This document shows, in pieces, positions 60 to 17,546 of a DNA stretch of 64,000 nt (positions are counted from its first letter, which is position 1; each line of letters begins with the position of its first letter). The notes beneath the pieces are model-generated. The model made no database searches. It was not told the DNA's origin and worked only from the letters and a program-made list of their open reading frames with translations. Position numbers and translations under genes: made by a program. The stretch comes from an uncultured Pelagibacteraceae bacterium (lineage in GTDB: Bacteria > Pseudomonadota > Alphaproteobacteria > Pelagibacterales > Pelagibacteraceae), in the NCBI GenBank assembly GCA_902608845.1, contig CACLPR010000001.1:19375-83374 (forward strand), written 5' to 3'.

Positions 60-962
60 TTAATAGATTGATTTTCTTCCTAATCTTGCAGCACCTCTAA
101 CGCCACTAGCATCTCCGTACTTTGGCTTAAGAAATACACCTTCATACTCTCTACCAGTTACAAATTTTCTTACGATAGTTTCGATTTCACTTAAAAAATC
201 AATTTCATTTGAAACACCCCCGCCAAAAACAAAACAATCGGGATCAAGAATGTTAATTATATTTGCTAAGGACATTGCTAAATTTACTTTAAAATTATCT
301 ATTAAATCTTCAGCATCTAAATCATGCTTTCTATATAAATTAAAAATTTCATTCGTCTTTAAATTTTTTTTGAATTTTTTATTAAATTTTTTTGCTAAAC
401 TTAAGCCTGACATAAAACTCTCAATCTCACCCTCTCTTAGATTGGTAGAATCGAAATTTTCTTTTTTGGAAATTAAATGGTTAATTTGATTGTGTCCCCA
501 TTCACCTGCTACTCCATTTGGTCCACTAACAATTTTTTTGTCTATTACTAAACCACCACCTACCCCAGAGCCAATAATAATTCCATAAACAATTTTATAA
601 TGTTTTCCTGCCCCATCTAAAGCTTCAGACAAAGCAAAGCAATTGGCATCATTTTCACAAAATACCTCCTTACCTAATTCTTTTCTCAGATCATTTTGAA
701 ATGGTTTTTTTTCTAACCAATAACAGTTAGGAGCGTTCTTAACTAATCCTGTTTGAGGTGAATGAATGCCAGGATGACAAACACCAATCGGTAGTTCTTT
801 GTTGAATTCTTTCTCTAACTTTTTGTTAATTTCTTTAATTGTTTTTATAATTTGAAAGTAGTCTTTTGGACAATCAGTTCTCTCACGGTGACTTTCGTTT
901 CCTTTTTCATCTAAAACTACACTTTCAATTTTTGTAGCTCCAACATCAATACCTATTTGCAT
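60..962 (-). CDS. ROK-family sugar kinase (Mak/fructokinase-like)
   Basis: GIDVGATK start, ENDANCFALSE, IIGSGVGGG, GEWGH and C-terminal GDASGVRGAA resemble Mak; the Cys-rich Zn motif is absent. Confidence 0.85.
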   Translation of the reverse strand: MQIGIDVGATKIESVVLDEKGNESHRERTDCPKDYFQIIKTIKEINKKLEKEFNKELPIGVCHPGIHSPQTGLVKNAPNCYWLEKKPFQNDLRKELGKEVFCENDANCFALSEALDGAGKHYKIVYGIIIGSGVGGGLVIDKKIVSGPNGVAGEWGHNQINHLISKKENFDSTNLREGEIESFMSGLSLAKKFNKKFKKNLKTNEIFNLYRKHDLDAEDLIDNFKVNLAMSLANIINILDPDCFVFGGGVSNEIDFLSEIETIVRKFVTGREYEGVFLKPKYGDASGVRGAARLGRKSIY

Positions 963-965
963 AAA

Positions 966-1715
966 TTAATAAGTTGCTCTTCCACCACTCAAATCAAAAA
1001 CAGCAGCTGTTGAAAATGAATTTTCTTCACTTGATAACCAAGTCACAAGGGAAGCTAATTCATTAACTTTTGCAAATTTATTTCTAGGAATTTTAGATAA
1101 CATATAATTTATATGTTCCTCGGTCATTTGATCAAATATTCTTGTTTTTGCTGCTGCTGGAGTAACACAATTAACTGCAATATTTTTTAATGCTAATTCT
1201 TTTCCCAATGACTTTGTTAAACCTATTACTCCTGCTTTAGAAGTGCTGTAAGCACTAGCGTTAGGATTGCCTTCTTTTCCTGCAATTGATGCAATATTTA
1301 CAATTCTTCCATAATTATTCTTTATCATGTAGGGGGTAACTGCTTTACAACAATAAAATACTGCATTTAAATTTAGGTCTATAACCCTCTTCCATTCATC
1401 AAGTGGATAATCAACTACCGTGGTATTTTTTCCTGCAACGCCTGCATTATTGATAAAAATGTCAATTTTTTTGTGTGTTTTTTCGATTTCGGCTAAATTT
1501 TTTTCTATATTCTCATAATTTCCAACATCAACAATTTGGTATGAAACTTTATCTGAATTAATTTTATTGATTGCTGTTTTAATTGCTTCCTCATCAATGT
1601 CCCAAATCACTACACTTGCCCCTGATTCAATAAATCTTTCTGTGATAGCTAAACCAAATCCTTGAGCTCCTCCTGTAACAACTGCAACTCTATTTTTTAA
1701 ATCAAAATTAATCAT
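966..1715 (-). CDS. SDR dehydrogenase, 2-keto-3-deoxy-L-rhamnonate 4-dehydrogenase (LRA5)-like
   Basis: TGGAQGFG, NNAG and YSTSK motifs; AGKEGNPNASAYSTSKAGVIGLTKSLGKELA and FDLSGGRATY match the recalled LRA5 subfamily. Confidence 0.7.
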   Translation of the reverse strand: MINFDLKNRVAVVTGGAQGFGLAITERFIESGASVVIWDIDEEAIKTAINKINSDKVSYQIVDVGNYENIEKNLAEIEKTHKKIDIFINNAGVAGKNTTVVDYPLDEWKRVIDLNLNAVFYCCKAVTPYMIKNNYGRIVNIASIAGKEGNPNASAYSTSKAGVIGLTKSLGKELALKNIAVNCVTPAAAKTRIFDQMTEEHINYMLSKIPRNKFAKVNELASLVTWLSSEENSFSTAAVFDLSGGRATY

Positions 1716-1716
1716 A

Positions 1717-3189
1717 CTATTTTTTTTGTTTTTTTGACCTTAATAAAGGAAAAGCTAATGCAATTAAAGATAAAATAAAAAAGGTTAAAGCTATAGGTCT
1801 TGTTAAAAACATCAGCCAATTTCCATCAAAAATAACTAAAGATTGTCTTAAGGTTCCTTCTACTAATTCTCCTAAAATTAATCCTATAATTACTGGAACA
1901 ACTGAAAAACCAAATCTTCTCATAAAAAATCCAAGCACACCAAAAAATAACATAATCCAAACATCAATTATTGACTGACTTAAAGAATAAGTACCACACA
2001 CAGATACAGCAAATATCATAGGCCATAAAATTTTGTTAGGAACAAGAGTTATTCTTGCAAATAATTTTGCACCAAAAAATCCAAAAATAAAAAATAAAAC
2101 ATTAGCAATTAACATTGCCCCAAAAATTCCATACAAAAAGTCTGGTTGCTCTCTAAATAGATCTGGACCTGGTCTTACACCGTGAATTATAAGCCCAGTT
2201 AATATGACTGCTGTTGTAGCACTTCCAGGTATTCCTAATGCTAACGTTGGAACCATTGCACCACCTGTAGCAGCATTATTTGCTGCCTCAGCACCGGCAA
2301 TACCTTCTATTGACCCTTTTCCAAATTCTTCTGGCTCTTTAGAAAATCTTTTTGCTTCTGAATAACCAATTAAGGATGCTACAGTCCCACCCTCAGCTGG
2401 CAAAACTCCAATAAACGAACCAATACCACTAGATCTAAGAATAGTTTTCCAAGTTTTTTTATAATCATCTAAGGATGGAAGTTTTACCGCTTTTAGTGCA
2501 ACTCTTTTGAAAACTTGATCAAGAAGTGTAGACTGAGTTAACATTTCGCTTATTGCAAATAAACCTACTACAACTGGTATAAATCCTATTCCTACAGAAA
2601 GCTCATTTATACCATAAGTAAATCTATCAATTGAAGTCATAAAATCTTTTCCAATAGTAGAAATTAAAATTCCAAACGCACCAGCGATTAAATTTTTGAT
2701 CGGACTTCCTTCACCAATTGATGCTAGCATTGTTAAACCAAAAATAGCTAACGCAAAATATTCTGGTTGACCAAATTCATAGGCAAGTTGAGCTAAAACA
2801 GGTGCAAAAAATACCAAAACTATTACGCTAAAAATTCCACCCACTGTGCTTGAAACTGTTGCCATACCCAAGGCTCTTCCCGCTTCCCCCTTTTGAGCTA
2901 GGGGATAACCATCTAGACAAGTGGCTGCTGCTGCTGGAGTTCCAGGGGTATTTATTAAAACTGCAGTGATTGCACCGCCGTATGTTCCAGCACAGTAAAT
3001 TGATGTTAAGAGAACTATTGCTGAAAGAGGGTCTAAAGTCATAGTAAATGGTAAAATTAATGCACCACCAGTTGTAGGGCCTAATCCTGGTAGAACGCCT
3101 AAGATCAATCCAAATAAAGTCCCAAAAATTAAAACAATTAACAACTTAGAACTAAACAAAGGTGCCATCATTAATAAAAGATTGTCCAT
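1717..3189 (-). CDS. tctA: Tripartite tricarboxylate transporter large permease TctA
   Basis: GVLPGLG, YGGAITAVLINTPGTP, EAANNA and LGIPGS signatures; polytopic membrane protein. Confidence 0.93.
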   Translation of the reverse strand: MDNLLLMMAPLFSSKLLIVLIFGTLFGLILGVLPGLGPTTGGALILPFTMTLDPLSAIVLLTSIYCAGTYGGAITAVLINTPGTPAAAATCLDGYPLAQKGEAGRALGMATVSSTVGGIFSVIVLVFFAPVLAQLAYEFGQPEYFALAIFGLTMLASIGEGSPIKNLIAGAFGILISTIGKDFMTSIDRFTYGINELSVGIGFIPVVVGLFAISEMLTQSTLLDQVFKRVALKAVKLPSLDDYKKTWKTILRSSGIGSFIGVLPAEGGTVASLIGYSEAKRFSKEPEEFGKGSIEGIAGAEAANNAATGGAMVPTLALGIPGSATTAVILTGLIIHGVRPGPDLFREQPDFLYGIFGAMLIANVLFFIFGFFGAKLFARITLVPNKILWPMIFAVSVCGTYSLSQSIIDVWIMLFFGVLGFFMRRFGFSVVPVIIGLILGELVEGTLRQSLVIFDGNWLMFLTRPIALTFFILSLIALAFPLLRSKKQKK

Positions 3190-3190
3190 A

Positions 3191-3697
3191 CTAGTAATAA
3201 TAAAGGTTTGTAATTATTCCTGGAGGAAATCTAAGTCCCAATATCATTTCAAAAAATATGAAAACTACTAATGGAAACAAAATTCCAACTAATAATAAAT
3301 AAAAAATTCTCTTTTCACCCCAATTGTATGAAACAAATATTGAGAGTACTGATATAGCTAAGAAAAAGTCTAATGTTTTAGAAATTATAATAAATAAAAT
3401 AAAACTTAAGATTGTTAAAAAAAATGGTTTTGGAAGTTTTTTTTCTTTTTTCCAAGGATTTTTGAATGAAAGATAATAAATAACTGCAGTTAAAAACATT
3501 ATCAATACTAACAATCCTTTTGGGAAAGTAGCAGGTTGTATGCCTCTATTTAAAATTGGAGGAACCTTATCAAATGTAAAAGTAGTTACTAATAATATTG
3601 TCGAAACAAATATAATTACAAAAAAAACTTTAAATTCATCTTTAAAAAAAAAGGGCAAACTTTTGTTTGCCCTTTTTTTATTTCGTACATTATTCAT
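3191..3697 (-). CDS. tctB: Tripartite tricarboxylate transporter small permease TctB
   Basis: About four TM segments, PATFP motif, C-terminal LGLRFPPG; lies between tctC and tctA. Confidence 0.85.
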   Translation of the reverse strand: MNNVRNKKRANKSLPFFFKDEFKVFFVIIFVSTILLVTTFTFDKVPPILNRGIQPATFPKGLLVLIMFLTAVIYYLSFKNPWKKEKKLPKPFFLTILSFILFIIISKTLDFFLAISVLSIFVSYNWGEKRIFYLLLVGILFPLVVFIFFEMILGLRFPPGIITNLYYY

Positions 3698-3717
3698 AAA
3701 AATGTACTTTCTTATGA

Positions 3718-4692
3718 CTAATTAATGTAACCCAAAGCTTTAAGTTGAGCAGTCATCTCTGCAAGCATGACTTCCATTTGCTTGCCCCACTCATCAGCTC
3801 CAACAACACTAGTTGAATCAAGGCCAATATCAGTTAAAAAACTTTGGAAATATTTATGTTCCATTGCTTTAATCATTGCATCTTCAAGTTGTTTTTTTCT
3901 ATCGCCTGGAACACCTTTTCTTGTTACAAAACCTCTAACTGTTGAAAGCACAACTGGAATTCCTAACTCAGTAGCAGTAGGAACATTACTTAATTTTTCC
4001 ATTCTGTTACTAGCAAGTACAACTGAAACACACAATGTACCATCTTCAATTTCTGTTACAGCTTCTCCCAAGTTTAAAACACCTACATCAATATCTCCTT
4101 TGATAAGATTAGTTTTAATAGGACCAACACCTTTATAAGGAACAATTGTTGGGTCTGTTAATTTTCCTTTTTTTGTAAAAGCGATAGCACTTACATCATC
4201 AATACCACCAACGTGAGTAGTACCATATTTTAATGATTTTGATTTTTGAGCGCTAATAAATTTTTTAGCATCTTTAATATCATTTTTACAATTTACGACA
4301 AATAATTGAGGATCATCAGTTCCTCTAGCAAGTGGTTGCATATCACTTAATTTAACTTTTGTTTTTCCTAATGCCATAGAAACAGCATGTCCTGTAGTCC
4401 AAGTTAAAGTATGTTGACCATCTGCTGGTAAAGTCATCATGTAATCCATAGATGCAGCTCCACCACCACCCTTCTTGTTAACTAATTGCATATCTTGTTT
4501 TAGATACCTTCTAGTTCTTAACAACATCATTCTAGTAGTTACGTCTGTACCACCACCAAAACCAGCGTGTGTAATAGCTTGAATTGGGTGACCATCTGCT
4601 TTTGCAGAAGTAATCATAAGTGGAAGTGCAACAACAAAAAATTCAGTTACCAAAAATGCGGCAGCTAAAAATAATTTAAAACTTTTTTTCAT
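3718..4692 (-). CDS. tctC: Tripartite tricarboxylate transporter substrate-binding protein TctC/Bug
   Basis: Signal peptide; GGGTD, NKKGGGG, PADG, VPYKG and VPTATELG motifs; RBS-like AGAGGG upstream. Confidence 0.88.
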   Translation of the reverse strand: MKKSFKLFLAAAFLVTEFFVVALPLMITSAKADGHPIQAITHAGFGGGTDVTTRMMLLRTRRYLKQDMQLVNKKGGGGAASMDYMMTLPADGQHTLTWTTGHAVSMALGKTKVKLSDMQPLARGTDDPQLFVVNCKNDIKDAKKFISAQKSKSLKYGTTHVGGIDDVSAIAFTKKGKLTDPTIVPYKGVGPIKTNLIKGDIDVGVLNLGEAVTEIEDGTLCVSVVLASNRMEKLSNVPTATELGIPVVLSTVRGFVTRKGVPGDRKKQLEDAMIKAMEHKYFQSFLTDIGLDSTSVVGADEWGKQMEVMLAEMTAQLKALGYIN

Positions 4693-4763
4693 TATTTCCC
4701 TCTTTTTAGTTAATTTATATTTAAATATATAAACATAATCTGATACATAGCGTAAAGTAAAAA

Positions 4764-5759
4764 ATGGCTCAAAATAAAATTAACATAGCAGTTCTTTTAG
4801 GGGACCCTTCTGGTATAGGTCCCGAATTGGTCTCAAAACTATTGTCAGAGGAAATCACTAACAAGGCTAATTTAATTATCATAGGTGAAAAAAATATATT
4901 AGAAAGTGGAAATAAAATTTCAGGCAAATCACAAAATCTAAATTTTGTAGAAGATTTCAATAATATTGATTTTGCGAAGGGTAATAAATTTTTTCTAGAT
5001 ATCTCTAATGGTAAAAATCATAATTATAAATTATCTGAGTGCTCTAAAGAGGCGGGAGAAAGCGTCTTAGCTTCGCTAAATTTAGCTTTAGATCTTGCTA
5101 AAGAAAATAAAATTCATGCAATAAACTTTGGACCTTTTAATAAAACAAGTCTTAAACTTGGAGGAAATAAATATTCTGATGAATTACATTTAATGGCTGA
5201 AAAGTTAGAGGTTAAAAATTTTTTTTGTGAATTTAATGTTATTGATAATTTTTGGACAGCAAGGGTATCATCACATATTCCAATAAAAGAAGTTCCAGAA
5301 CATGTAAAAAAAGAAAAAATTATTAAGCCAATTAAACTTATAAATGAAGCTATGAAATTAAATGGTATTAAAAGTCCAAGAGTAGCAGTTCAAGCACTGA
5401 ATCCTCATGCTGAATTTGGAACTGAGGAAAAAGAAGAAATTATACCCGCAATAGAAGAGGCAAAAAAACTAGGTATTAATGCTGATGGACCTTTGCCGTG
5501 TGATACTTCTTTTATTACTGCTTATAAAGATGGAAATCATGATTGTATTGTTGGTATGTATCATGATGCTTTACAATCAGGTTTAAAAGCATTTGGATTT
5601 GATCGAGGAGTAACCGTTCAAGGAGGTTTACCTTTACCTATTACCACTCCTGCTCACGGTACAGCGTTTGATATTGCAGGTAAAAATGTGGCAAACTTAG
5701 AACCTACTTTGAATTCATTTAAAATTGCATTAACAATGGCAGAAAATAAAAACAATTAA
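4764..5759 (+). CDS. PdxA-family oxidative decarboxylase, probable 2-carboxy-L-lyxonate decarboxylase (ClxD-like)
   Basis: GDPSGIGPE, LNPHA, MYHD and TTPAHGTAFDIAG; the DELH...FCEFNV...WTARVSSH block recalls the catabolic PdxA2 subfamily found beside lyxD; abuts the dehydratase gene. Confidence 0.7.
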   Translation: MAQNKINIAVLLGDPSGIGPELVSKLLSEEITNKANLIIIGEKNILESGNKISGKSQNLNFVEDFNNIDFAKGNKFFLDISNGKNHNYKLSECSKEAGESVLASLNLALDLAKENKIHAINFGPFNKTSLKLGGNKYSDELHLMAEKLEVKNFFCEFNVIDNFWTARVSSHIPIKEVPEHVKKEKIIKPIKLINEAMKLNGIKSPRVAVQALNPHAEFGTEEKEEIIPAIEEAKKLGINADGPLPCDTSFITAYKDGNHDCIVGMYHDALQSGLKAFGFDRGVTVQGGLPLPITTPAHGTAFDIAGKNVANLEPTLNSFKIALTMAENKNN

Positions 5760-6935
5760 ATGTCTAAAATAAAAAGTATTCGTACCAAGGTATATCAATG
5801 GAATGGTAAAACAGTTCCTCCACAAAACAATTTTTGCACAAATGCATCAGACCTTTTGTTTGAAAAATCAGATGCTATGGGCTCTTTTAGGTTTCATGAA
5901 TGGTTAATATGTGAAATTGAAACAGACGATGGTACAGTTGGAATTGGAAACGCAGCACTCGCACCACAATTAGTGAAAAAAACAATCGATACTTATTTAA
6001 CTCCTTTAGTAATAGGTGAAGATCCTTTTGATTATTCTTATATATGGGAAAAAATGTATAGAAGAACGCATGCGTGGGGAAGAAGAGGATTGGGAATGGT
6101 AGCTATTTCTGCAATTGATATTGCACTCTGGGATATAATGGGAAAGATTACAAATAAACCTGTATTTAAATTATTAGGTGGGAGAACAAAAGAAAAAATT
6201 CCTGTTTACGCATCTAAACTTTACAGCCAACCAATCAACGACTTGCAAAAAGAAGCTGAAAGCTATGTTAAGCAAGGTTTTAAAATGTTTAAAATGAGAT
6301 TTGGATGGGGGCCAAAAGATGGACCTGATGGTATGAAAAAAAATATTGAGCTAGCTGAAGCAGTTAGAGAAGTTATTGGATATGATACCGACCTAATGAT
6401 GGAATGTTATATGGGTTGGAACTTAGATTATACAAAAAGGATGATCCCTAAATTAGTAAAATTTAACCCTAGATGGTTGGAGGAACCTGTAATAGCAGAT
6501 GATATTCATGGCTATGCAGAATTAAATAATATGAATGCAATTCCAATTTCTGGTGGAGAACATGAATTCAACTTATTTGGATTTAAACACTTATTGGATA
6601 TTAAAGCAGTCAGCTATATTCAATATGACAATAATAGAGTTGGTGGATTTACAATTGCAAATAAAATAAATGCATTGGCAGAAGCTTATCAAGTGCCAGT
6701 TATTCCTCATGCTGGTCAAATGCATAATTATCATTTAACAATGTCAAATTTTAATTGTCCAATATCTGAATTTTTTCCAGTCCATGACGTAGAAATTGGC
6801 AATGAATTATTTTATTACATTTTTGAAGGTGATCCTGCCCCTAAAAATGGATATATAAATTTAGATGATAACAAACCCGGTCTAGGTTTAACAATTACTG
6901 ATAAATTTAAGTCTGATTTCAAAATAATAGAATAA
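5760..6935 (+). CDS. lyxD: Mandelate racemase/enolase-superfamily sugar-acid dehydratase, L-lyxonate dehydratase-like
   Basis: [43 protein letters not shown] and [10 protein letters not shown] closely match the recalled Labrenzia L-lyxonate dehydratase. Confidence 0.78.
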
Positions 6936-7850: not shown

Positions 7851-8314
7851 TATTTATCAAGAACCCAAACACTACCATCTGGTTTAATTACTCCCTTAGT
7901 TAATATAAAACACCCATACGGTCTCATTTCTGAGGTTGATACTATTAATTGAGATTTTTTTGCCTCTTTATAAAATTCTTGTCTTTCAATTGAACCTATC
8001 TTCCAATTTTCTCCAGAAGTTTCTTTTACAGCTTTAATAAAATCTTTATGACAATCAGTTAATTCATCAGGTTTGTTATCAACCTGCATTCTGTTTGCAG
8101 CTGAATCAATGAAACTATCTAATGGAAAAACAGAAAGAATAGCCTTTGTGGCTTCATAAATATCTACTCCATCTAGTCTAATTACTTTATTATTTAAAGA
8201 GTGAGAATATGCTGGAAAATTAGCATCAGTTAAAACAAGTTTATCGCCATGACCCATTGCCCTTAACTGATAAAGGAGCTCAGGGCTTAAAATTGGATTA
8301 ATTTTAATTAGCAT
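7850..8314 (-). CDS. RbsD/FucU-family mutarotase/pyranase
   Basis: LSPELL..L..MGHGD.LVLTDANFP and PYGCFILTKGV. Confidence 0.88.
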   Translation of the reverse strand: MLIKINPILSPELLYQLRAMGHGDKLVLTDANFPAYSHSLNNKVIRLDGVDIYEATKAILSVFPLDSFIDSAANRMQVDNKPDELTDCHKDFIKAVKETSGENWKIGSIERQEFYKEAKKSQLIVSTSEMRPYGCFILTKGVIKPDGSVWVLDK

Positions 8315-8335
8315 TTTGCAACTATAATATATAAA

Positions 8336-8368
8336 AAAAAAGGGTGAAATAAAATTTCACCCTTTTTT
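8336..8368. terminator. Intrinsic terminator hairpin downstream of the sugar-binding protein gene
   Basis: Perfect stem AGGGTGAAAT-aaa-ATTTCACCCT flanked by an A run and a T run. Confidence 0.8.
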
Positions 8369-8386
8369 ATTTAATTTTTCTAAAGA

Positions 8387-9319
8387 TTATTTAAAATCGT
8401 TAGCGTTTTCTGTTGTTACTAATTGTGTACCAGTATCAATATTAGGATCAATACTTCCACCGTTAGCTAGCTCAAGAGCATATTTAACTCCATATGCGCC
8501 CATGTTGTATGAGAACTGAGCTATTGTTGCAGTCATCTCTCCTTTTAGGATGCTTGTAGCTGCATCTGGAGTAGCATCAAAACCAACAACGATCACATCA
8601 TTCATATCAGCATCTTTTAATGCTTGCATTGCACCTAATCCCATATTGTCATTAGAAGCAAAAATCGCTTTGATATTAGGATTTTTCAAAATGATTGACT
8701 CAGTAACTGATCTACCTTTTGCAGTATCCCACTCAGCTGTTTGAGTAGCAACAAGGTTCAAACCACAGTTTTTAAATCCTTTGATTGCACCATCTCTTCT
8801 TAGTAATGCAGTTGATTGAGACTCAATTCCAGTAAGAATTGCAACATCAGATCCTTTTGGAGTTTTATCACAAATAAATTTTGCAGCTAATTCTGCACCG
8901 TTCATATTATTTGTCCCAATGAAAGTTACACCTTCATTAATTCCTTTTGTATCAACAAATACAACTGGAACACCACTTTTAATAGCATCGTCTACAATTG
9001 GTGCAAAAGCGTTTGGATCTCCTGGTGCAAGTGCAAGTGCATCAACACCTTTTGCAAGTTGGTCCTCAACTTGGTTTATCTGAGCTTGTACATCACCTTC
9101 TTGTGGAGGAGCAATTAAAATTAATTTTACTCCTAATTTTTTTGCCTCTTCTTCAGCACCTTTTGTAACAGAAGCCCAGAATGGGTTTCCAGAACCAGGT
9201 CCTTTAATACTGAATAAGATTTTTTTACCATGTCCGTCAGCAAAAGATACTGACCCCATGCTAATCAATAAAAAAATCGCTGAAATGAAAACAACAATTT
9301 TTCTGTTTAGTTCTCTCAT
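8387..9319 (-). CDS. Sugar ABC transporter periplasmic binding protein (RbsB-like)
   Basis: Signal peptide; NPFW, GVPVVFVD, IFASNDNMGLGA, VVGFDA and ATIAQ motifs. Confidence 0.9.
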   Translation of the reverse strand: MRELNRKIVVFISAIFLLISMGSVSFADGHGKKILFSIKGPGSGNPFWASVTKGAEEEAKKLGVKLILIAPPQEGDVQAQINQVEDQLAKGVDALALAPGDPNAFAPIVDDAIKSGVPVVFVDTKGINEGVTFIGTNNMNGAELAAKFICDKTPKGSDVAILTGIESQSTALLRRDGAIKGFKNCGLNLVATQTAEWDTAKGRSVTESIILKNPNIKAIFASNDNMGLGAMQALKDADMNDVIVVGFDATPDAATSILKGEMTATIAQFSYNMGAYGVKYALELANGGSIDPNIDTGTQLVTTENANDFK

Positions 9320-9427
9320 ATTTTTACCCCTTTAATAATTATTAAAAATTAATTTAATTAAATTTTTAAAAAAAATTCAACTGTTTATAAAAGACAATCA
9401 AATTTACAATTACAACTATTAAGTGTG

Positions 9428-15312: not shown

Positions 15313-16755
15313 ATGTATAGCAAATTTGGACAATTCATTGACGGCAAATGGCAAGCATCACAAAATAATGAAACTTATGATGTTTTAAATCCTGCAACTG
15401 AAGAAGTTTTAGGTAAAGCATCTAAAGCAGGTGAAGAAGATGTAAACAAAGCACTTAAGTCTGCAGAAAAAGGTCTTGAAGTTTGGAGAAATACTCCACC
15501 TTGGCAAAGATCAAAAATTATAAGAAAAATTGCCGATCTTATGAGAGAGAGAACTGACGTTTTGGCTAAGTGGTTAACATTAGAAGTTGGAAAGCCACTA
15601 TCAGAAGCAAAAGGGGAAGTTGGCGGAGCTGCAGATATTTTTGAGTGGAACTCTGAAGAAACAAAAAGAATTTATGGTCAGATAGTTGAAAGTAGATTTG
15701 AACATACAAGAATGTATGTAAAATATGAACCTGTTGGAGTTGTTGCTGGATTAATACCATGGAACTTTCCAATAGTTTTATCCTCAAGAAAAATTTCTAC
15801 TGCTTTAGCTGCAGGATGTTCAGTAATTTGTAAGCCTGATGTAATTACTCCAGGTAGTGTAATGGAACTTATGAATATTATAAATGATGCGGGGGTTCCT
15901 CCAGGAGTAGTAAATTTATTATCTGGTGATCCAGCTAAAATCTCATCTCAATTAATATCATCTGATATAGTGAAAAAAGTTTCTATTACTGGTTCAACAA
16001 GAGTTGGAAAACTAATTTTAAAACAAGCTGCTGAAAAAGTCCAAAGAGTTACAATGGAATTAAGTGGCCATTCACCTTTCATTGTTTTTGACGACGTAGA
16101 TATTAACAAGGTAACCGACATGGCAATTACTGCTAAATTTAGAAATAATGGTCAAGTTTGTATATCACCAGCAAGATTTTATATTCATGAAAGTAAAAAA
16201 GATGAATTTGCTAAAAAATTAGTTGAAAAGGTTAGTAAACTGAAAGTTGGTAACGGAATGGATGAAGATACAATTCTAGGACCTTTAACTACAGAAAAAA
16301 GATTAAATGAAATAGAGGCATTAGTAGAAAAAACTAAAAGTGAGGGAGCAACGGTTTTATGTGGGGGAAAGAGACCAGCTGGTTTTAATAAAGGATATTT
16401 CTATGAACCAACTGTTTTTGACAATGTTAAAGATAATTTTACAATTGCTAAAGAAGAGCCCTTTGGACCTTTAGTTCCATTGCTTACTTTTAAAAACACA
16501 GATGAAGTTGTGGAAAGAGCAAATGACAATGACCTTGGTTTAGCAAGCTATATTTACACAAATTCTTTAGAAAAAGCACACAAAGTCTCAGAAAAAATGG
16601 AAACTGGAACATGCGCAGTGAACCATCCAACAATTGCATTTGCTGAAGTACCTTTTGGAGGAATAAAACAAACAGGTTATGGAAGAGAAGGTGGTTCAAT
16701 GGCTATCAAAGATTATTTGAACGTAAAGTACACTCACTTCGGTCTCAATTATTAA
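15313..16755 (+). CDS. NAD(P)-dependent aldehyde dehydrogenase (SSADH / alpha-ketoglutaric semialdehyde dehydrogenase-like)
   Basis: PWNFP, TGSTRVG, MELSGH, KFRNNGQVCISP and EPFGP; the GDPAKIS and VCISP features recall the AraE-type KGSA dehydrogenase. Confidence 0.85.
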   Translation: MYSKFGQFIDGKWQASQNNETYDVLNPATEEVLGKASKAGEEDVNKALKSAEKGLEVWRNTPPWQRSKIIRKIADLMRERTDVLAKWLTLEVGKPLSEAKGEVGGAADIFEWNSEETKRIYGQIVESRFEHTRMYVKYEPVGVVAGLIPWNFPIVLSSRKISTALAAGCSVICKPDVITPGSVMELMNIINDAGVPPGVVNLLSGDPAKISSQLISSDIVKKVSITGSTRVGKLILKQAAEKVQRVTMELSGHSPFIVFDDVDINKVTDMAITAKFRNNGQVCISPARFYIHESKKDEFAKKLVEKVSKLKVGNGMDEDTILGPLTTEKRLNEIEALVEKTKSEGATVLCGGKRPAGFNKGYFYEPTVFDNVKDNFTIAKEEPFGPLVPLLTFKNTDEVVERANDNDLGLASYIYTNSLEKAHKVSEKMETGTCAVNHPTIAFAEVPFGGIKQTGYGREGGSMAIKDYLNVKYTHFGLNY

Positions 16756-17546
16756 TGAGAAAAAATAAAGTCAAACAAATGATGGCTGATGGTAAGCCTG
16801 TTGTAAATGGTTGGTTACAAATACCAAGCACTGTATCAGCAGAAGTTATGGCGCATCAAGGTTGGGACTCTCTAACTGTAGATATGCAACATGGACTTGT
16901 TGATTACACAAATGCACTTCCAATGCTTCAAACAATTTCATCAACTGATGTAACTCCTCTTGCTAGAGTAAATTGGAATGAACCAGGCCAAATAATGAAA
17001 ATTTTAGACGCTGGTTGTTATGGAATTATATGTCCAATGGTAAGTAACAAAGAAGAGGCGGAAAGATTTGTTCAAGCTTGTATGTATCCTCCAAGAGGAT
17101 ATAGAAGTTTTGGTCCTGTTAGAGGATTGATTTATGGTGGAGCTGATTATGCCGACCATGCAAATGATGAAATTTTAAAATTAGCTATGATTGAAACAAA
17201 AGAGTCATTAGATAAATTAGATGAGATTATGTCAACAGATGGCGTAGATGGAATATATATTGGTCCAGCTGACTTAAGTTTAGCAATAGGAGAAAAGCCT
17301 GGGTTTGACAGAGCAGAAAATACAAAAGCTTATTCAGAAATATTAAGAATATTAGAGCATGCCAAAAAAAATAATATATTTGCAGGAATTCATAATGGAA
17401 CACCAGAGTACGCACAAAAAATGATCGATAAAGGTTTTAACTTTGTAACTATTGGTGCAGATCAAAGAGCAATGAGCGCAGGTGCTAAAGCAATTGTTGA
17501 AAAAATGAAAGGCTCAATAAGCAAAAAAGAATCTGAAACTTATTAA
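16755..17546 (+). CDS. HpcH/HpaI class II pyruvate aldolase
   Basis: DMQHG, ARV, LDAG..GIICPMV, YPPRGYRSFGP, MIET and IGPADL; TAATG coupling to the ALDH gene. Confidence 0.9.
   Translation: MRKNKVKQMMADGKPVVNGWLQIPSTVSAEVMAHQGWDSLTVDMQHGLVDYTNALPMLQTISSTDVTPLARVNWNEPGQIMKILDAGCYGIICPMVSNKEEAERFVQACMYPPRGYRSFGPVRGLIYGGADYADHANDEILKLAMIETKESLDKLDEIMSTDGVDGIYIGPADLSLAIGEKPGFDRAENTKAYSEILRILEHAKKNNIFAGIHNGTPEYAQKMIDKGFNFVTIGADQRAMSAGAKAIVEKMKGSISKKESETY

Follow-up and report, generated by a model that had tools for sequence, protein, structure and literature searches.

A divergent transporter and dehydratase module of SAR11 bacteria predicted to degrade an acid derived from oxidised vitamin C

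The 64,000-nucleotide stretch of DNA analysed here (the window), which comes from an uncultured Pelagibacteraceae (SAR11) bacterium and has a GC content of about 30%, contains a compact gene module in which a tripartite tricarboxylate transporter (TTT, encoded by tctCBA) is arranged divergently with respect to a PdxA-family paralog and a dehydratase of the LyxD family. With slightly more confidence than doubt, we interpret this module as an accessory part of SAR11 catabolism that would use an acid arising from oxidised vitamin C by means of import, decarboxylation, dehydration and final steps catalyzed by a short-chain dehydrogenase/reductase (SDR) and a hydrolase of the fumarylacetoacetate hydrolase (FAH) family. 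In the proposed mechanism, TctC would capture a carboxylate, most likely 2-carboxy-L-threo-pentonate, for import via TctBA, and the PdxA-family paralog would decarboxylate this acid to L-lyxonate, as suggested by its pairing with LyxD and the presence of its homologs in full ascorbate clusters. LyxD, for which the support from homology is strong, would then dehydrate L-lyxonate to L-2-keto-3-deoxypentonate (L-KDP). Finally, homology and operon structure point to oxidation of C4 of L-KDP by the SDR, which is probably co-transcribed with tctCBA, and to cleavage of the resulting diketo acid to pyruvate and glycolate by an LRA6-like FAH hydrolase. Because the cell lacks the cytochrome b561 oxidase and the rearranging beta-propeller protein, such a pathway would depend on abiotic or community oxidation of ascorbate.

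The open reading frame map places the transporter genes on the minus strand as a single operon, comprising tctA for the large membrane subunit (1717..3189; Pfam PF01970, 528 bits), tctB for the small membrane subunit (3191..3697; PF07331), which is conserved in SAR11 loci, and tctC for the periplasmic solute-binding protein of the TTT system (3718..4692; PF03401). On the plus strand are the PdxA-family paralog, a candidate NAD-dependent 2-carboxy-L-lyxonate decarboxylase (4764..5759; PF04166, 249 bits), and the LyxD-family dehydratase of the enolase superfamily, predicted to convert L-lyxonate to L-KDP (5760..6935; PF02746, 74 bits, and PF13378, 179 bits). The two sets of genes are separated by a divergent control region of 71 bp (4693..4763). 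The SDR gene (966..1715, minus strand), whose product is a candidate L-KDP 4-dehydrogenase of the LRA5/L-KDRDH-like type based on PDB alignments, starts 1 nucleotide beyond tctA on the same strand. A prior reading of the DNA made from sequence alone (the sequence-only reading) had given the same layout, and the map reproduces its coordinates, its 71-bp spacer between tctC and the PdxA-family gene (4693-4763) and its zero gap between the latter and the enolase-family gene, where the TAA stop directly abuts the ATG. The five gene families that it had named are likewise recovered as Pfam matches to TctA, TctB, TctC, PdxA and MR_MLE_N plus MR_MLE_C. For comparison, we assembled 80 LyxD-anchored loci (designated by L-numbers), mostly from Pelagibacteraceae single-cell genomes. 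The divergent arrangement is repeated in about 55 SAR11 loci and, across Proteobacteria, the PdxA-like gene adjoins LyxD or lies no more than 3 kb away in 78 of the 80 loci, a recurrence that indicates that the arrangement is not due to chance. In the two loci without this pairing, LyxD lies less than 300 nucleotides from the contig end.

The product of the dehydratase gene aligns over its full length with the structures 3SSZ, 3STP and 3SQS in PDB (691, 675 and 668 bits, respectively), and is about three-quarters identical to these solved relatives, while its next-best match, an L-rhamnonate dehydratase, scores 212 bits. Both the N-terminal capping domain and the C-terminal barrel domain of the enolase superfamily were detected in it. 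According to Ghasempur et al. 2014, the LyxD family is reportedly marked by a KxR motif and a His-Asp dyad, and 3STP is an entry that we take to be the Labrenzia aggregata enzyme of this isofunctional family. In the SAR11 protein the KxR motif is K178-M-R180, presumably situated at the end of beta-strand 2 with Arg179 of the Labrenzia enzyme as its counterpart, and the dyad is formed by H317 and D290, the His presumably corresponding to His316 of the same enzyme; K178, R180 and both dyad residues are invariant among 82 family sequences. In the phylogenetic tree the SAR11 LyxD copies form a single clade with 99% support, nested among the LyxDs of other alphaproteobacteria. The membership in the LyxD family proposed in the sequence-only reading is thus borne out by the scores and the invariant catalytic residues, and the prediction that this protein is an L-lyxonate dehydratase is well supported. 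One SAR11 subclade (L056, L065-L070, L073, L075, L079, L082) has LyxD proteins that are only about 71% identical to the window copy and lie on a long branch within the SAR11 clade, although its TctCBA and PdxA-like proteins are mostly 74-95% identical to those of the window; in this one subclade LyxD has evolved unusually fast.

Clustering and Pfam scanning of the neighboring genes revealed three module types outside SAR11. The first, here termed full clusters, is found in seven loci (L053, L059, L060, L067, L077, L078, L080) and combines genes for the beta-propeller protein, the PdxA-like protein, LyxD, a DHDPS-family protein and an aldehyde dehydrogenase (ALDH) with those for a LacI regulator, an ABC transporter, cytochrome b561 and an SGL lactonase. 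These match the enzyme families that reportedly make up the ascorbate pathway (Stack et al. 2020), and a Pfam scan of the genes in their 10-kb flanks recovered no amidohydrolase-family lactonase. The second type, the TTT modules, is represented by six loci (L054, L055, L057, L061-L063) with tctCBA, LyxD, a DHDPS-family gene, a GntR regulator, the PdxA-like gene and an ALDH. The third comprises modules linked to a TRAP transporter. Among named genomes, the Ruegeria pomeroyi DSS-3 megaplasmid (NC_006569.1, 257352-282524; L091) carries TRAP, beta-propeller, PdxA-like, LyxD, DHDPS, ALDH, LacI and SGL genes. In addition, a Cupriavidus chromid presents a row of LysR, TctC, PdxA-like and LyxD genes. 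Public annotation names the PdxA-like gene "4-hydroxythreonine-4-phosphate dehydrogenase PdxA" and LyxD "L-rhamnonate dehydratase", and this systematic misannotation would keep the pathway hidden in metagenomic surveys. Likewise, in the RefSeq records of the DSS-3 locus and in other PLSDB records, the PdxA-like protein is labeled "PdxA" with pyridoxal Gene Ontology terms and the beta-propeller protein is a "hypothetical protein".

Two further loci show variations on these themes. One (L085; GCA_014773385.1, 49-9017) encodes an IclR regulator, an MR-family enolase that is not LyxD, an ALDH, TctCBA and a PdxA-like protein, along with a 318-residue protein with a weak match to peptidase U32; this suggests that the combination of a TTT system, a PdxA-like protein and an enolase is a recurring design for other sugar dicarboxylates. 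The other (L094; ENA ERZ23496337, 2166-3335) has a DOMON-domain protein at the position of cytochrome b561 in a cluster of the full type, which may be an alternative ascorbate-oxidising component.

The steps leading from ascorbate to the substrate of the PdxA-like protein are missing from the SAR11 genomes. No homologs of cytochrome b561, the beta-propeller "mutase" or the ascorbate-cluster lactonases were found in the window or in the rest of the host assembly (939 kb, 74% complete). A profile search of 301 Pelagibacteraceae genomes (123 of high quality, 36 LyxD-positive) recovered neither the beta-propeller protein (0/301) nor cytochrome b561 (0/301; profile built from five cluster-encoded homologs), while in two full-cluster genomes that served as positive controls the beta-propeller profile gave E-values of 1e-187 and 1e-194 and that of cytochrome b561 1e-127 and 1e-142. 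The observation made from sequence alone that the upstream steps are not encoded in the window can thus be extended to these 301 genomes. Both profiles were also without a match in the three TTT-module (roseobacter) genomes searched, one of which is complete. Of five genomes with TRAP-linked modules, none has a true beta-propeller ortholog and four lack cytochrome b561.

Against this background, the affinities of the transporter are informative regarding its possible ligand. The N-terminus of TctC resembles a signal peptide, with a predicted mature end starting at DGHPIQ. In each of five non-SAR11 genomes with TTT modules, the best genome-wide match of the SAR11 TctC is the LyxD-linked copy (51-55% identity, E-values of about 1e-100), with the next paralog at no more than 41% identity; similarly, the SAR11 TctA is 60-65% identical to the TctA of roseobacter LyxD-linked TTT systems. 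As judged from these sequence relationships, there is a distinct TctC subfamily that travels with the PdxA-like protein and LyxD in genomes apparently unable to make the substrate of the PdxA-like protein from ascorbate. Such linkage in the absence of the upper pathway is precisely what the import hypothesis predicts, and the association of the TctC orthologs with LyxD also argues for a ligand other than citrate. The import of an already formed dicarboxylate through the TTT system, as envisaged in the sequence-only reading, hence gains inferential support from the missing upper pathway and from the linkage of orthologous TctCs in roseobacters that also lack it. The transported acid is probably 2-carboxy-L-threo-pentonate, a compound downstream of ascorbate for which the synonyms "2-carboxy-L-lyxonate" and "2-carboxy-L-xylonate" are in use; it arises non-enzymatically by rearrangement of 2,3-diketo-L-gulonate and slowly decays to L-lyxonate and L-xylonate (PMC6225978; PMC11066805). 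A TTT binding protein from the SAR11 strain HTCC1062 binds citrate (PMC11485210), and the diversity of SAR11 TTT paralogs has been described without mention of ascorbate or lyxonate as a substrate (PMC11796062; bioRxiv 10.64898/2026.10.07.757358). Within the literature collection covered, nothing relevant was retrieved on SAR11 or Pelagibacter together with lyxonate, dehydroascorbate or diketogulonate.

An alternative, which we regard as unlikely and yet the strongest of the competing explanations, is that the compound taken up by the TTT system is L-lyxonate itself or L-lyxonate mixed with L-xylonate, in which case LyxD together with the SDR and FAH proteins would constitute the actual pathway and the PdxA-like protein would have a side role, for instance on a minor co-occurring acid. 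It draws on the fact that LyxD is the best-supported assignment in the module, on the abiotic formation of L-lyxonate, too, from decay products of ascorbate, and on the ability of TctC-family proteins to bind many different carboxylates, as seen in relatives in PDB. However, the PdxA-like gene is translationally coupled to LyxD and has been kept in every streamlined SAR11 locus as well as nearly throughout the comparison set (78/80). It is retained even in those TTT and TRAP modules that lack the upper pathway. Such persistence would be surprising for an enzyme that could be dispensed with.

Returning to the import of the carboxylated acid as the favored reading, the fate of the L-lyxonate formed from it appears to differ from that in the classical route. 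The host genome offers only a DapA-like match of 24-26% identity for a KdlD-type DHDPS and only weak ALDH matches for alpha-ketoglutarate-semialdehyde dehydrogenase, and neither a DHDPS-family dehydratase nor the matching ALDH lies beside LyxD in the SAR11 loci. Hence, the description of these genes in the sequence-only reading as the lower half of an ascorbate pathway is inexact, since the classical exit via KdlD and alpha-ketoglutarate-semialdehyde dehydrogenase is lacking and an SDR and an FAH protein seem to be used in its place. The SDR aligns end to end with PDB 6D9Y, 9JVE and 9KQ1 (280-304 bits). The first of these is a putative L-2-keto-3-deoxyrhamnonate (L-KDR) 4-dehydrogenase, which is 51-54% identical to characterised enzymes (PMC11199699). 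Another homolog of the SDR, C785_RS20555, oxidises L-KDP in Route III, where an L-KDP dehydrogenase and an FAH-family hydrolase yield pyruvate and glycolate (PMC6336799). L-KDP is the expected product of L-lyxonate dehydration, after which only C4 remains chiral.

The SDR gene is found 3' of tctA in those SAR11 loci that are long enough to show it. In several of them (L043, L065-L070, L079) the operon has the order tctC-tctB-tctA-SDR-FAH, with the FAH gene 14 nucleotides past the SDR gene and core genes beyond, and in L056 the order is SDR-ROK-FAH. The best model for these FAH proteins is that of the 2,4-didehydro-3-deoxy-L-rhamnonate hydrolase (NF053535, 375-405 bits). In the host genome an ortholog, 80-82% identical to the SDR-adjacent FAH proteins, is encoded at G000:C1:2525-3367. 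From these sequence affinities we predict that the SAR11 exit consists of the SDR and the FAH hydrolase and yields pyruvate and glycolate. The region containing the host FAH gene (L083; G000:C1:443-7990), which lies some 11-19 kb left of the window, is a second sugar-acid unit on one strand, with genes for an SGL lactonase, an MR-family enolase (35% identical to LyxD), the LRA6-like FAH protein, an SDR, a 3-hydroxyisobutyrate-dehydrogenase-like protein and a TRAP transporter (DctMQP). It looks like a Route III pathway of the fuconate/rhamnonate type with its own transporter, and its FAH protein is the sole close host ortholog of the SDR-adjacent FAH proteins of other SAR11.

The host genome has two PdxA-family genes; the one outside the module lies directly upstream of ksgA/rsmA, in the same order as pdxA in E. 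coli, and its position identifies it as the housekeeping pdxA. Against the NCBIfam models the module protein scores 221 bits for the PdxA equivalog (cut-off 290) and 173 bits for PdxA2, the D-threonate-4-phosphate dehydrogenase model (cut-off 583), and six further homologs linked to LyxD (from SAR11, roseobacters, Kiloniellales, Cupriavidus and a metagenome) likewise fall below the cut-offs of both. The module protein shows 27% identity to E. coli PdxA and retains the metal-binding His triad (H171, H215 and H267, aligned with H166, H211 and H266 of the E. coli enzyme), and where E. coli positions 135-136 carry the canonical G-H, the SAR11 protein and all LyxD-linked homologs have D-E. Of 22 signature columns, each at least 90% conserved among LyxD-linked homologs but uncommon in canonical PdxA, the SAR11 protein shares 18. 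In both trees it falls, distant from canonical PdxA, inside the smallest supported clade that includes every context-verified LyxD-linked homolog (97% SH-like support in one tree and 91% SH-aLRT in the other). These results agree with the earlier view that the protein is neither a canonical PdxA nor of the PdxA2 type.

The signature columns were considered as a mark of function and rejected, as they are also present in P0151, a Firmicute protein whose gene context is of the housekeeping kind; therefore they mark a broad subfamily. Likewise, the locus of P0126, which is among the closest PdxA-like proteins outside SAR11, was set aside as evidence for the pathway, given that the neighboring enolase is not LyxD. 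Phylogeny alone does not fix the function of the PdxA-like protein, and the argument is carried by gene context. The first homology search with this protein recovered only near-identical SAR11 sequences, named Candidatus Pelagibacter, which together with the mostly Pelagibacteraceae loci of the comparison set place the host in SAR11. The closest relative outside SAR11 by identity (46-48%) is a fungal gene (L084, GCA_003369635.1) adjoining genes for a fungal transcription factor and an MFS transporter, which indicates that the subfamily extends into eukaryotes.

Several observations weigh against the interpretation advanced here. The ligand and the enzyme activities ascribed to the SAR11 module proteins are predictions. 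In the sequence comparison the place of the characterised Cupriavidus necator enzyme was taken by the LyxD-adjacent PdxA homolog of Cupriavidus sp. EM10, which is 43% identical to the SAR11 protein. The sister group of the SAR11 PdxA-like branch shifts with the tree method, the same clade includes four proteins with unrelated neighbors (P0132, P0138, P0151 and P0161), and P0126 from the same subclade adjoins a non-LyxD enolase. With respect to the exit, the best score of the FAH proteins, 405 bits, is below the NCBIfam cut-off of 500, and the host ortholog is encoded in another sugar-acid operon, 17 kb left of the window. Finally, the SAR11 PdxA-like proteins are only 38-44% identical to other LyxD-linked proteins, and all of them have lost 4 residues of the otherwise universal NPHAGDNG loop, immediately after the metal ligand H215 (about residues 216-221), and have MYHDA in place of MYHDQ (about residue 269), on account of which their substrate could differ.

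Such a difference is the basis of a second alternative, somewhat less probable than the import of L-lyxonate, namely that the PdxA-like protein and perhaps also the TTT system have shifted to another dicarboxylic sugar acid, branched or beta-hydroxy and with no relation to ascorbate, which would still be funnelled into a LyxD-type dehydratase. In addition to the loop deletion near the metal ligand and the Q-to-A replacement, both confined to SAR11, the long stem branch of the SAR11 PdxA-like proteins, the varied contexts of the wider PdxA subclade and the fast-evolving LyxD of one SAR11 subclade would be consistent with a shift of this kind. Yet the divergence of the SAR11 proteins equals that among the LyxD-linked clades themselves (41-48% mutual identity), most of the signature columns are retained, TctC and TctA are clear orthologs of LyxD-linked counterparts elsewhere, and the catalytic residues of LyxD are invariant. 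That the gene might simply be a vitamin-B6 PdxA or a PdxA2-type 4-phospho-tetronate dehydrogenase with an incidental enolase neighbor, as its name in public annotation and the ROK kinase gene in the transporter operon could be taken to imply, is highly improbable in light of the shortfall against both models, the separate pdxA next to ksgA, the D-E replacement, the low identity to E. coli PdxA, the lack of a DUF1537 kinase among the genes scanned and the absence of the ROK gene from the minimal SAR11 module.

The remaining genes around the module appear to have less direct roles. The ROK-family sugar kinase gene (60..962, minus strand; PF00480) lies 3' of the SDR gene, and its product has fructokinase as its best NCBIfam match (271 bits, cut-off 443). 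We place it outside the minimal module, where it is absent and the FAH hydrolase gene occupies its place; it probably functions with the ABC sugar system encoded next to it. The ABC permeases encoded 3' of the ROK gene were considered as orthologs of the full-cluster permeases and rejected, for they belong to the same BLAST cluster but are only 28-31% identical. Further along, an aldehyde dehydrogenase gene (15313-16755, plus strand) is translationally coupled to that of an HpcH-family aldolase (16755-17546, plus strand), both identified by Pfam and neither with an equivalog-level NCBIfam match. An ortholog of the ALDH is found directly 3' of LyxD in other SAR11 loci. It is possible that this pair (15313-17546) provides an alternative exit, in which L-KDP would yield pyruvate and glycolaldehyde, and the latter glycolate.

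LyxD is present in 36 of the 301 Pelagibacteraceae species genomes (27 of the 123 of high quality) and in 6 of 19 genera; its presence in only part of these genomes marks the module as accessory. In four seawater RNA libraries, each from a different study, contigs cover every gene of the module. Over tctC and a nearby rbsB-like gene for a ribose-binding protein (3769-4710 and 8165-9400), the contig depth summed in these libraries exceeds that of adjacent genes by a factor of 10 to more than 100; such depth, however, measures expression poorly and cannot rank genes, and this is at most a hint of high expression of the binding proteins, a pattern that fits the dominance of binding proteins in SAR11 expression. 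The divergent control region includes two blocks, GTTAATTTATA and ATAAACATAATCTG, whose sequence is for the most part preserved among SAR11 loci that have diverged. The same spacer (4693-4763) contains the palindrome TATATTTAAATATA, and no regulator gene adjoins the module at this locus. In a scan for promoters and terminators, shuffled sequence gave more promoter-like sites than the actual DNA, and the scan is hence uninformative at 30% GC.

SAR11 are the most abundant heterotrophs of the surface ocean, and their growth substrates are poorly mapped. Cultured SAR11 can reportedly meet their needs for pyruvate and glycine from pyruvate and glycolate (Carini et al. 2013). With this in mind, we tentatively advance a broader proposal, to which we give somewhat less than even weight, that SAR11, roseobacters and other marine bacteria possess a dedicated high-affinity TTT uptake system for 2-carboxy-L-threo-pentonate, to which SAR11 would add a four-enzyme route to exactly pyruvate and glycolate. 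If this were so, a single abiotic decay product would meet two known nutritional needs of SAR11, and dissolved organic carbon from the ascorbate of phytoplankton would reach the most abundant heterotroph of the surface ocean in a flux that has gone unrecognised. The decay acids of vitamin C would then represent a new class of labile dissolved organic matter, and the pathway would be a truncated one, with abiotic chemistry standing in for the missing enzymes.

The above observations allow the SAR11 module to be compared with several known systems. In the L-ascorbate catabolic pathway of Ralstonia eutropha/Cupriavidus necator H16, reportedly described by Stack et al. 2020, a PdxA-family enzyme is said to be followed by LyxD. 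The SAR11 module shares this pair, and homologs of both occur in loci with cytochrome b561, the SGL lactonase and the beta-propeller protein; furthermore, a Cupriavidus chromid encodes TctC, a PdxA-like protein (43% identical) and LyxD (66% identical) consecutively. In contrast to the C. necator pathway, SAR11 lack cytochrome b561, the beta-propeller protein and orthologs of the KdlD-type DHDPS and the alpha-ketoglutarate-semialdehyde dehydrogenase, and have uptake by a TTT system and a different exit. In Pseudomonas aeruginosa PAO1, L-lyxonate is reportedly converted to alpha-ketoglutarate via a 2-keto-3-deoxy-L-lyxonate dehydratase and an aldehyde dehydrogenase (Ghasempur et al. 2014). The PAO1 and SAR11 systems have in common a LyxD-family enzyme with the KxR motif and the His-Asp dyad, but the SAR11 LyxD gene has neither of the two follow-on genes alongside and is instead accompanied by the SDR gene and, in sister loci, by that of the FAH hydrolase.

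The pairing of an L-KDP/L-KDR 4-dehydrogenase-like SDR with an FAH-family hydrolase is reminiscent of Route III of non-phosphorylative pentose metabolism in Herbaspirillum huttiense (Watanabe et al. 2019, PMC6336799) and of LRA5/LRA6 of the L-rhamnose pathway. However, Route III of H. huttiense is fed by a series of pentose dehydrogenase, lactonase and pentonate dehydratase, whereas the SAR11 pair is joined to a TTT operon and would be fed by LyxD. A further parallel is provided by the TTT-LyxD modules of roseobacters (for example, Pseudopelagicola sp. nBUS_19 and Ruegeria sp. Alg231-54), with orthologous TctCBA, PdxA-like and LyxD proteins and no upper pathway; unlike SAR11, they have kept the DHDPS-family dehydratase along with the ALDH and a GntR regulator, and the SAR11 genes differ from theirs in being arranged divergently. 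The megaplasmid of Ruegeria pomeroyi DSS-3 has a TRAP instead of a TTT transporter and retains the beta-propeller protein and the lactonase. Among SAR11 transporters, the module TctC is comparable to SAR11_1203 of Ca. P. ubique HTCC1062, a TctC-family TTT binding protein (Clifton et al. 2024, PMC11485210). Unlike the citrate-binding SAR11_1203, it is a flexible-genome paralog whose orthologs are always LyxD-linked, and the two are set apart here by this linkage. Thus, in conclusion, the comparisons support the view that the SAR11 module differs from the known ascorbate pathway in having no upper steps, uptake through a TTT system and a predicted exit via an SDR and an FAH hydrolase.

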